Shown piece after piece: positions 34,717-36,198 of a DNA stretch of 64,000 bases (position 1 is its first letter; every line of letters starts with the position of its first letter). The position numbers and the translations under genes are program-made. The notes under the pieces were generated by a model, which saw only the letters and a program-made list of their open reading frames with translations, made no database searches and had not been told where the DNA came from. The stretch is from an uncultured delta proteobacterium (GTDB taxonomy: Bacteria; Desulfobacterota; Desulfobaccia; Desulfobaccales; 0-14-0-80-60-11): the NCBI GenBank assembly GCA_963812015.1, contig CAWETI010000003.1:1-64000 (forward strand). The letters run 5' to 3'.

Positions 34717-34808
34717 GGTAGTTCACCGGGTTTAATAACCACAAAGCCTTAAATCAGTTCCATTTTTTTCCCCTCTCCCCCAATGGGGGAGAGCGACTGT
34801 GTTAGATG

Positions 34809-35762
34809 TCAAGGGTTAACTGGTGCAAGGGGGCACCAGGGTTGCTGTTGTTTAAGTATGGCATTAAGGATGGTTAACAGTTTACGCATACAGGCGGTAA
34901 GAGCCAATTTCTTGCTCTTACCCATTGCCAGCAACCGGAGATAGAAGGCACGGATGGCCGGATTGACCCGGCAGGCGGCCAACGTAGCCATATACAAGGG
35001 AGGCCGCACCCGGGCCCGGCCACCCCAAACGGTGCGCTTGCCCCGCATCTGACCGCTATCGCGGTTAAAGGGGGCCAACCCCACCAGGGCGGCGATCTTC
35101 TTGCGATTTAAGGTGCCTAACTCCGGCACCCAGGCTAACAGGCTTTGGGAGGTTAAGGGGCCGACTCCCGGGACGCTCTGGAGGAGTTGATCCTTCTCCA
35201 GCCAGATGGGGCTTTGACGGATGAAGTCGTCCAAATCTTGCTCCAACTCCTTAAGTTGTTCTTTAAGGGATTGGAGGTTGGTTTGCAGGCTTCTGCGGAC
35301 CCGTGGGGAGAAAGTCATGGATAGGCGATTTTTCTCCATGACCAGCATCTCCACCAGTTGCCGGCGCCGGCTCATGAGGGCGGCCAATTCCTGTTGATGC
35401 TCATCTGGCCAGGGTCGGAGGGACGGTTTCAGCGCCTCGGCAAAATGAGCCAGAACCGCGGCGTCGATCTTATCGGTTTTGGCCAATCTGCCGGAGGACC
35501 GGGCAAAGTCTCGCACCTGACGAGGGTTAATAATGTGGGCCGGCAGGTCAGCCTGCCGCAAGGCGGCGGCGGCCAGGATCTCATAGCCACCGGTGGCTTC
35601 CAGGAGGATGAGCTGGGGCTTAAGGGACAAAAGTCGGACAACGAGGGCCTGGATACCGGAGTCGTTGTTGGACTCCCGGAACCGGACCTCTCCTGGCCGG
35701 ATGGCGATGTCTAACTGGTCCTTAGAGACGTCAATGCCGACAAATACGGATTCAGGGTGCAT
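34809..35762 (-). CDS. IS110 family DEDD transposase/recombinase
   Basis: [28 protein letters not shown] and RDSG motifs. Confidence 0.96.
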
Positions 35763-35764
35763 AA

Positions 35765-35965
35765 AAAGCCTTGGCCTCCCGTCCTTGCAAGATACGGGCT
35801 TCAAAGCCCGGGCGACTGTTCGGGTTAATGCCAGGGCGACGTGGCGGCCACGCTCTCACCGCGGTCTTGAAGGACCAAGGGTTAGGACGGCCTGCCACGC
35901 CGCCATCAGGAGCAGTACTGCTCCTGATGGCCTGGTTCTTTAATGACCAAACTATGTACCGGTTC
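35765..35965 (-). ncRNA. Putative IS110 bridge RNA
   Basis: 5' hairpin, then two loops carrying segments matching the target (CCTAACCCT; GAGAG) and the donor (ACAGTCGC; GCAAG). Ends approximate. Confidence 0.8.
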
Positions 35966-36198
35966 CCTTTAACATACAAGGGTTAGGGTGAGGGGGAAAT
36001 AATCTTCACAGGCTAAGAAATACGTTACCGTATTTATAAAAAGCTGTACTTAGCCGCCCACGTTAACCCAAAACTCGGTGGGGAGAAAGGCGGGAAGGCC
36101 GTGCCGGGAGAGCCTGGTTTGGCCATGAAATTTTTTCTGATCATCAGGCGAATAATTGACAGGATAGAACTTTTAGAGTAGTCAATATTAGGGGTATT

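Follow-up and report, generated by a model that had tools for sequence, protein, structure and literature searches.

IS621 of Escherichia coli encodes a bridge recombinase together with a 177-nt bridge RNA (Durrant et al., 2024, PMC11208160; Hiraizumi et al., 2024, PMC11208158). Both the bridge-RNA mechanism and the targeting of repetitive extragenic palindromic (REP) sequences have already been published (PMC11208160, sections 5, 9, and 12), with REP targeting by IS110 elements having long been known (PMC11208160, sections 5 and 9; 10.64898/2026.03.19.712850, section 7). According to section 12 of PMC11208160, elements of the IS110 group present a left end that is far longer than the right end and contain a non-coding RNA in that left end, whereas those of the IS1111 group, which employ the same recombinase family and RNA-guided logic, present a long right end that houses the seekRNA or bridge RNA downstream of the gene, as well as subterminal inverted repeats (STIRs) of 7-17 bp. 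Here, a 64,000-nucleotide stretch of DNA (the window; contig CAWETI010000003.1) from an environmental sediment bacterium with a genome of 3.96 Mb in 6 contigs was considered. At positions 34794-35978, the window contains what is very probably a complete, recently active IS110-group insertion sequence (IS) with a bridge recombinase and a bridge RNA. Like ISPpu10 and ISPpu9 of Pseudomonas putida, both multi-copy IS110 elements found exclusively in one REP sequence and linked to large rearrangements or amplifications of the genome (10.64898/2026.03.19.712850), this element occurs in several copies that favor palindromic repeats. Window coordinates are used throughout, and all element features are read on the minus strand.

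An IS110-group element in eight genomic copies

The element measures 1185 bp, with the same boundaries being found in eight genomic copies that differ in their flanks. It starts with TGTATG at 35978, directly after CCTAACC-CT, and ends with ACAGTCG (34800-34794), followed by CT (34793-34792) and then by host CTCCCCC. The CT core dinucleotide is thus present on the left (35979-35980) and on the right (34792-34793), as is the case at both ends of 8/8 copies. The left target (LT), CCTAACC (35981-35987), lies in a host repeat and equals positions 1-7 of the left target guide (LTG) described below. The right target (RT), CTCCC (34787-34791), is complementary to the right target guide (RTG) except at position +4 and makes up the 5' arm of a hairpin in the host sequence, CCCTCTCCCCC-ATT-GGGGGAGAGGG, that reaches about 34771. 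The tip of the right end, ACAGTCG (34794-34800), reads as the left donor. The left end extends over 216 nt and the right end over 15 nt after the stop codon, with no long terminal inverted repeats being present. Instead, the donor is surrounded by a 4-bp subterminal inverted repeat (TAAC, 34804-34801, with GTTA, 35973-35970), and short STIRs of this kind have been described for the IS110 group (PMC11208160, section 12). Given the lengths of the two ends and the 4-bp STIR, the element was assigned to the IS110 group, rather than to the IS1111 group.

Between these ends lies a gene (34809-35762) predicted to encode a recombinase of 317 amino acids, comprising an N-terminal RuvC-like DEDD domain (PF01548; E = 2.8e-25, 89.4 bits vs. 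a cut-off of 29) and a C-terminal Tnp domain with the catalytic serine (PF02371; E = 2.4e-18, 66.7 bits vs. a cut-off of 21.3). Among solved structures, the best match was to the ISCro4 transposase (PDB 9t56; E = 1e-37, residues 2-309), which comes from another host, has another target and is known here only by its PDB molecule name. A full-length match to the IS621 transposase was also obtained (PDB 8wt6; E = 8.8e-37). In this alignment, D11, E55, D97, D100, and S236-G237 correspond to D11, E60, D102, D105, and S241-G242 of IS621, such that 5/5 catalytic residues are conserved; in the 8wt6 chain, each of the five carries a number higher by 2 (D13, E62, D104, D107, and S243-G244). In IS621, residues D11, E60, D102, D105, and S241 are essential (Hiraizumi et al., PMC11208158, sections 6 and 10). 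Among the genomes searched, the closest relatives of the protein share only about 60% identity with it.

At the level of sequence, the element resembles IS621 in every feature examined, and the in silico tests of group membership, covering domains, catalytic residues, core, ends, RNA helices, guides and junction promoter, all came out in favor of this placement. The two share the same domain order, all catalytic residues, the CT core, a long RNA-encoding left end, a promoter that would be rebuilt at the joined ends and insertion into REP-like repeats. They also share a 9-nt LTG that includes the core, an 8-nt left donor guide (LDG), a right donor guide (RDG) that is discontiguous and includes a G:T wobble, and handshake pairings (PMC11208160, sections 7-8; PMC11208158, sections 7, 8, and 11). 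At the same time, the two proteins are distant (130 bits over 306 amino acids), and the target and donor of the present element, CCTAACC-CT-CTCCC and ACAGTCG-CT-TGTAT, respectively, are its own, being known here from sequence alone. Moreover, the RTG reaches about 5 nt past the core in the present clade vs. 2 nt in wild-type IS621, where the RTG consists of 4 nt including the core (PMC11208160, section 38; PMC11208158, section 8). Likewise, the RDG contains a bulge of 3 nt, as compared to 2 nt in IS621, the structure of which includes a discontiguous RDG with a G:T wobble (PMC11208158, section 8). The known mechanism is left unchanged by the element, which enlarges the bridge-recombinase toolbox by one well-documented natural orthologue.

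The eight full-length copies share 99.3-100% identity, with three presenting 1-3 single-nucleotide polymorphisms, none of which falls in the guide loops. It could be argued that these copies are relics of segmental duplication or of past activity and that the element is now immobile. In support of such thinking, neither a circle junction nor a polymorphic empty site at the exact locus was recovered from the assembly or from four sequencing runs, and one copy has been reduced to a 66-bp remnant of the left end (C2:1263935-1264000) that retains the same target sequence on its left flank. However, the flanks of the eight copies are unrelated beyond the target motif, five copies are identical, the recombinase open reading frame (ORF) is intact in 8/8 copies and all of the catalytic residues have been kept. 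Immobility is therefore considered very unlikely; rather, the element is intact and probably active as a jumping gene.

The leader RNA and its guides

The 216-nt leader upstream of the recombinase gene is predicted to fold at -103.9 kcal/mol (z = -5.2), with 0/200 shuffles folding as well. The fold begins with a 5' stem-loop (35902-35931) that includes a perfect 13-bp stem and a 4-nt loop, and continues with two modules. The first of these, the target-binding loop (35839-35900), was delineated on the basis of helix covariation in 49 leaders and of covariation of the LTG and RTG with their own flanks. It is closed by an outer stem (35900-35890 with 35848-35839) in which A35893 is bulged, and contains, in order, the LTG, CCUAACC-CU (CCTAACCCT; 35886-35878), 9 nt in length including the core, a small GGTC/GACC inner hairpin (35876-35863), the RTG, GUGAG-AG (35859-35853), which contains GAGAG (35857-35853) and reads 5 nt past the core, and a handshake CG (35852-35851) that is complementary to donor positions 7-6 (cf. 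PMC11208158, section 11).

The second module, the donor-binding loop (35768-35837), was likewise delineated by helix covariation. Its basal stem (about 35837-35830 with 35776-35768) is supported by own-vs.-cross duplex energies and is followed by a CCC/GGG pairing (35824-35822 with 35780-35778). Next come the LDG, ACAGUCGC (letters read as ACAGTCGC; 35819-35812), which equals the right end in 41 orthologues, and an inner hairpin, CGGGCU/AGCCCG (35810-35795). The discontiguous RDG consists of AU (35793-35792), a 3-nt bulge and GCAAG (35788-35784), covaries with the start of the left end and includes one G:T wobble, with its upstream, invariant AU fitting donor positions 13-14. A handshake GA (35783-35782), position 1 of which pairs with LT7, completes the loop, and a U5 run (35767-35763) is found directly before the AUG at 35762. 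Each half-loop can be recognized by its bulged A and invariant G; a flipped-out A and a syn-G are found in the IS621 bridge RNA (PMC11208158, section 7). In this manner, the guide code could be read out in full, namely, 6 + 2 + 5 nt for the target, 14 nt for the donor, and the handshake positions. When the 216-nt leader was subjected to 200000 mononucleotide shuffles, the flank 9-mer and the end 8-mer arose 107 and 795 times, respectively, and the two together once.

A preliminary description of this locus had placed the target, the donor junction, the CT cores, the guide motifs and the small hairpins on the minus strand where they are indeed found, and had pointed to a perfect hairpin in the leader, seen here to be of 13 bp (35931-35902). 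The IS621-type architecture that it proposed is borne out by the 9-nt LTG that includes the core, the G:T wobble of the RDG, the handshakes, and the bulged A and invariant G. It is further borne out by folding and covariation, with the leader outperforming 200/200 shuffles, and with both scaffold helices and guides covarying in the orthologues. As for the guides themselves, the RTG and RDG had been drawn slightly too short, judging from the orthologues and from IS621.

On the opposite (plus) strand, 35902-35931 corresponds to a 13-bp hairpin followed by a T-rich tail, scored as terminator-like by a scan. Such a hairpin could stop transcription entering the element antisense to the bridge RNA.

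Covariation was considered across 80 related loci, with 11 exact duplicates and 5 loci in which the upstream sequence was too short being removed, leaving 65 distinct leaders, that of the window included; 51 leaders are non-redundant by LTG and RTG. Alignment with MAFFT revealed a shared layout, comprising GGCAGnCCG, the LTG, the inner hairpin, the RTG, AGC and the 3' stem strand in the 5' part and, after a linker, CCCGAACAGTYGC, a hairpin, CGyAUC, nCAAGG, and nGGG. In the 42 loci usable for the left-flank test (9 others having no recognisable left-end start), the LTG matched its own left flank at a mean of 4.83/7 positions, as compared to 2.55 for cross pairs. None of 20000 permutations reached the observed sum, and a score of at least 6 was attained by 19/42 own pairs vs. 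42/1722 cross pairs. In the 41 loci usable for the right-flank test (10 others having no right end that ends in CT), the RTG was complementary to its own right flank at a mean of 4.37/6 positions, with the corresponding value for cross pairs being 1.64. Again, 0/20000 permutations reached the observed sum, and a score of at least 5 was seen with 25/41 own pairs vs. 31/1640 cross pairs. As the guide signal spans LT positions -1 to -6 and RT positions +1 to +5, this clade appears to read about 13 bp and to employ a longer RTG than does wild-type IS621.

Similar agreement was seen on the donor side. In 41/51 non-redundant orthologues, the right end contains the LDG 7-mer and a subsequent CT, with 6 or 7 positions of the 7-mer agreeing, and the RDG follows the start of the left end, such that TGTAT is accompanied by A/G-CAAG and AGTAT by GCTAG. 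Position 1 of the donor-loop handshake is Watson-Crick complementary to LT7 in 42/49 leaders (permutation mean 29.2; 0/20000 permutations reach 42), a pairing of the sort described for IS621 (PMC11208158, section 11). These clade data present a 5-nt right-target guide and handshake pairing as the natural state, and so bear on engineering rules derived from IS621.

As for the structure itself, 52 leaders remained once redundancy across the four guides was removed, and RNAalifold was applied to 49 of these (L031, L036, and L081 being omitted as aberrant). This revealed four helices totaling 20 pairs, with compensatory changes in 15 of these. Across the 20 consensus pairs, 92.9% of cells were paired, as compared to 35-50% when partners were slid, and 168 cells presented double changes, as compared to 31-43 with slid partners; 0/500 shuffles reached the observed values.

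Since the donor-loop basal stem overlaps the Shine-Dalgarno sequence and is followed by U5-AUG, the fold of the leader probably affects translation. One could thus envisage the leader as being only a structured 5' untranslated region or an attenuator, with the protein picking the target and the identities between loops and flanks being left over from the ends of the element. In orthologues with wholly different targets, however, loop and flank nucleotides vary together both left and right of the core, which is not what a protein-only model predicts. In addition, the stems stay paired through compensatory changes across the orthologues, and the recombinase is homologous over its full length to enzymes with demonstrated RNA guidance (PMC11208160). 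An untranslated region devoid of guide function is thus exceedingly improbable, and the leader is best understood as encoding a bridge RNA.

A separate observation concerns the linker before the donor loop, which pairs with the Shine-Dalgarno region downstream of that loop (35837-35830 with 35776-35768). Own linker-tail pairings averaged -8.0 kcal/mol vs. -5.7 kcal/mol for cross pairings, with 0/5000 permutations reaching the own sum, and in several orthologues this pairing covers GGAG. Such pairing points to the guide fold as also limiting translation, with the basal stem and U run possibly acting as an attenuator or translation block.

Occupied sites and host repeats

All eight copies are inserted at YWRACC-CT-CYYCC. 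The left targets are CCTAACC (three copies), CCTGACC (three), ACTAACC (one), and CCAAACC (one), and the right targets are CTCCC (six), CTTCG (one), and CCTCC (one). When sites were scored genome-wide against the 13 nt specified by the loops, CTAACC-CT-CTCAC, both of the sites with one mismatch were found to be occupied (2/2), as were 4/48 sites with two mismatches and 2/325 sites with three, the class with zero mismatches being empty (0 occupied of 0 sites). Occupancy hence drops as mismatches to the guide-derived target rise. As such, the genome offers a natural specificity experiment, in which every one-mismatch site and few two- or three-mismatch sites are occupied. The preliminary description held that its account would fall were other copies to be inserted at unrelated targets; instead, 8/8 copies share the motif and occupancy tracks the guide match.

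About 6/8 insertions are found within palindromic repeats of two REP-like families, and it is to these sites that the earlier designation of the target as a host palindromic repeat applies. In family A, the core and RT make up the 5' arm of an 11-bp hairpin, while family B corresponds to a longer palindrome, CCCTCTCCCAAACCCTCTCCCCCAACCCC...GGGG.TGGGAGGGGAG.

It is conceivable that recognition is dual, with the bridge RNA reading 13 bp and the recombinase sensing the host palindrome as a structural gate, an idea that extends, rather than replaces, guidance by the RNA. Insertion of about 6/8 copies in the 5' arm of a palindrome, and this in two repeat families, speaks for such a gate, as does the fact that the only 4 occupied sites of the 48 with two mismatches are all in repeats. 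Furthermore, a preprint reports the target stem-loop to be a second specificity determinant for the IS110 element ISPpu10 (10.64898/2026.03.19.712850). Yet the stem-loop of the ISPpu10/ISPpu9 target lies on the 5' (LT) side, whereas the palindrome considered here is on the RT side, spanning the core and RT, with two families sharing the target. Moreover, an ancestral site reconstructed from the left flank of copy 6 and the right flank of copy 3 (see below) is unique, intergenic and non-palindromic, yet was used. Finally, the repeats may simply be where matching sequence occurs, in which case their enrichment needs no structural term. A structural gate is accordingly regarded as a possible, if somewhat doubtful, addition to recognition by the guides, and the 13 bp read by the bridge RNA remain the preferred explanation of site choice.

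Beyond the occupied sites, families A and B were noted to share ACC-CT-CTCCCCC, as well as the 13-bp stretch targeted by the IS, with 40 sites being found genome-wide. Within the window, repeat sites are located at 44443-44459, 44595-44611, and 18224-18264. The 66-bp remnant mentioned above ends at a CATCAGG microhomology that is also present in the right flank of copy 8. The remnant is followed, up to about C2:1264300, by a C-terminal fragment resembling a REP-associated tyrosine transposase (RAYT) and containing the motif HVDYIHYNPVKHG; in the genome as a whole, PF01797 yielded two matches above the cut-off and one below.

Proposed life cycle and flank exchange

A candidate -35 hexamer, TTGACA, is found in the right end (34807-34812), where it overlaps the stop codon, and is predicted to be functional only once the ends are joined. 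A -10-like hexamer, TATGTT, lies at the tip of the left end (35971-35976), a position at which TAnnnT is present in 32/35 orthologues. Joining the ends in silico yields TTGACA, a 17-nt spacer and TATGTT. Among the orthologues, 26/35 present a -35 box with at least 5/6 matches at the 17-nt spacing, and 23/35 present both boxes. A scan of the linear element for sigma-70 promoters returned none. A junction promoter has been described for IS621 (PMC11208160, section 5).

In one sequencing run, recorded as metagenomic RNA-Seq, a 172-nt contig corresponds exactly to 35765-35936, starting slightly ahead of the 5' hairpin and ending at the U5 tract, and offers a weak hint of leader RNA expression. No RNA run was among those listed for the element. 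DNA runs from other studies also contain the element, including the left flanks of copy 6 and copy 3.

The steps of the life cycle were reconstructed by analogy with IS621, from which the transcript, the circle, catalysis, and programmability proposed here are likewise drawn. The element would leave as a circle in which the right and left ends are joined across a single CT, thereby creating the sigma-70 promoter TTGACA-17 nt-TATGTT, and this junction promoter would drive transcription of the roughly 200-nt left end as the bridge RNA. Next, the target-binding loop would read both strands of the host site, with the RTG, GUGAG-AG, pairing with the core and RT on the top strand. At the same time, the donor-binding loop would read the joined ends through the LDG, ACAGUCGC, and through AU...GCAAG, the discontiguous RDG, which includes one G:T wobble. 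Recombinase dimers assembled on each loop would synapse, Ser236 would cut after the CT core, strands would be exchanged and the junction resolved. Handshakes are expected to aid strand exchange, the target-loop CG engaging donor positions 7-6 and the donor-loop G engaging target position 7. The predicted outcome is a simple insertion with CT on either side. About 13 bp, CTAACC-CT-CTCnC, would make up the programmed target, located in the 5' arm of REP-like palindromes of two families.

Several points weigh against the view of the element as an active, bridge RNA-guided insertion sequence. Expression is represented by the one 172-nt contig, the RNA label of that run is a guess and the ends of a contig are not RNA ends. 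The circle junction was absent from the assembly (0 matches) and from the joints of four runs, a result that is uninformative, given how contigs drop rare forms. The genome search with the 13-nt target returned no perfect site, and position +4 of the RTG (U) faces C at every occupied site, unless this U bulges out. The orthologues are related, so the permutation counts overstate independence, the targets nonetheless being very diverse. The guides were taken from the MAFFT alignment, in which a few leaders are mis-registered (e.g., L053, L071, and L090) and were retained as misses. Lastly, the minimum free energy structure of a single 202-nt RNA gives a donor-loop fold unlike the consensus structure.

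This single-sequence donor-loop fold of the predicted 202-nt RNA was set aside in favor of the consensus supported by covariation. Also set aside were joints that skip 1187 bp in two runs; these present short sides (20 and 28 nt) and other letters, and probably correspond to unoccupied copies of the repeat elsewhere. In one of these two runs, the coding part presented no coverage, which was not taken as evidence.

Examination of the copies revealed that copy 3 (C3:812619-813825; locus L007) and copy 6 (C2:1146474-1147690; locus L003) have hybrid, swapped flanks. In 7/7 genus relatives that have both, the left flank of copy 6 and the right flank of copy 3 lie next to each other on one contig in collinear order, with these being about 1.5 kb further apart than expected in one relative (G008). 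The additional 1.5 kb is not an IS copy; it gave no BLAST match and holds a low-GC ORF for a membrane protein. In the reciprocal combination, the left flank of copy 3 and the right flank of copy 6 make up one intact family A repeat, and in four relatives, a repeat like that in the left flank of copy 3 is found directly upstream of the gene located after copy 6. Because synteny of the left flank of copy 3 is not conserved in the relatives, save for its repeats, this latter adjacency is only partly supported. The ancestral second site, CTAACC-CT-CTTCG, is a non-repeat. Together, the swapped flanks and the ancestral adjacency point to two IS copies having exchanged flanks, giving rise to an inversion or a translocation, and so indicate an IS-to-IS event that rearranged the genome.

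It is unlikely, albeit worth considering, that this exchange was the work of the bridge recombinase encoded by the element, operating on half-sites or integrated copies, rather than of host homologous recombination, and that, in addition, the donor-loop basal stem and U5 run serve as an attenuator coupling production of the guide RNA to translation of the recombinase. If true, an exchange between copies 3 and 6 made by the recombinase would represent a natural, bridge RNA-guided chromosome rearrangement.

Finally, an Rfam search of 34000-37000 on both strands returned no family above its gathering score and, as such, no match to a bridge-RNA family on the sense strand. Below that threshold, sX15 (RF02234), a small RNA of Xanthomonadaceae, aligned over its full length with the antisense strand of the leader (35768-35909, plus strand). 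This was the only match to recur, scoring 23.8 bits in the present leader, with values of up to 45.1 bits being obtained in 5/20 orthologue loci (L027:1006-1168, L023:1041-1146, L038, L097, and L024, on the strand opposite the recombinase gene), all of these values being below the gathering score of 55. A limited literature search revealed no report naming both sX15 and IS110. The sX15 consensus holds the reverse complement of the donor-loop motif, and sX15 may represent the leader locus of an IS110 element, modelled on the opposite strand, or, alternatively, a true antisense RNA.

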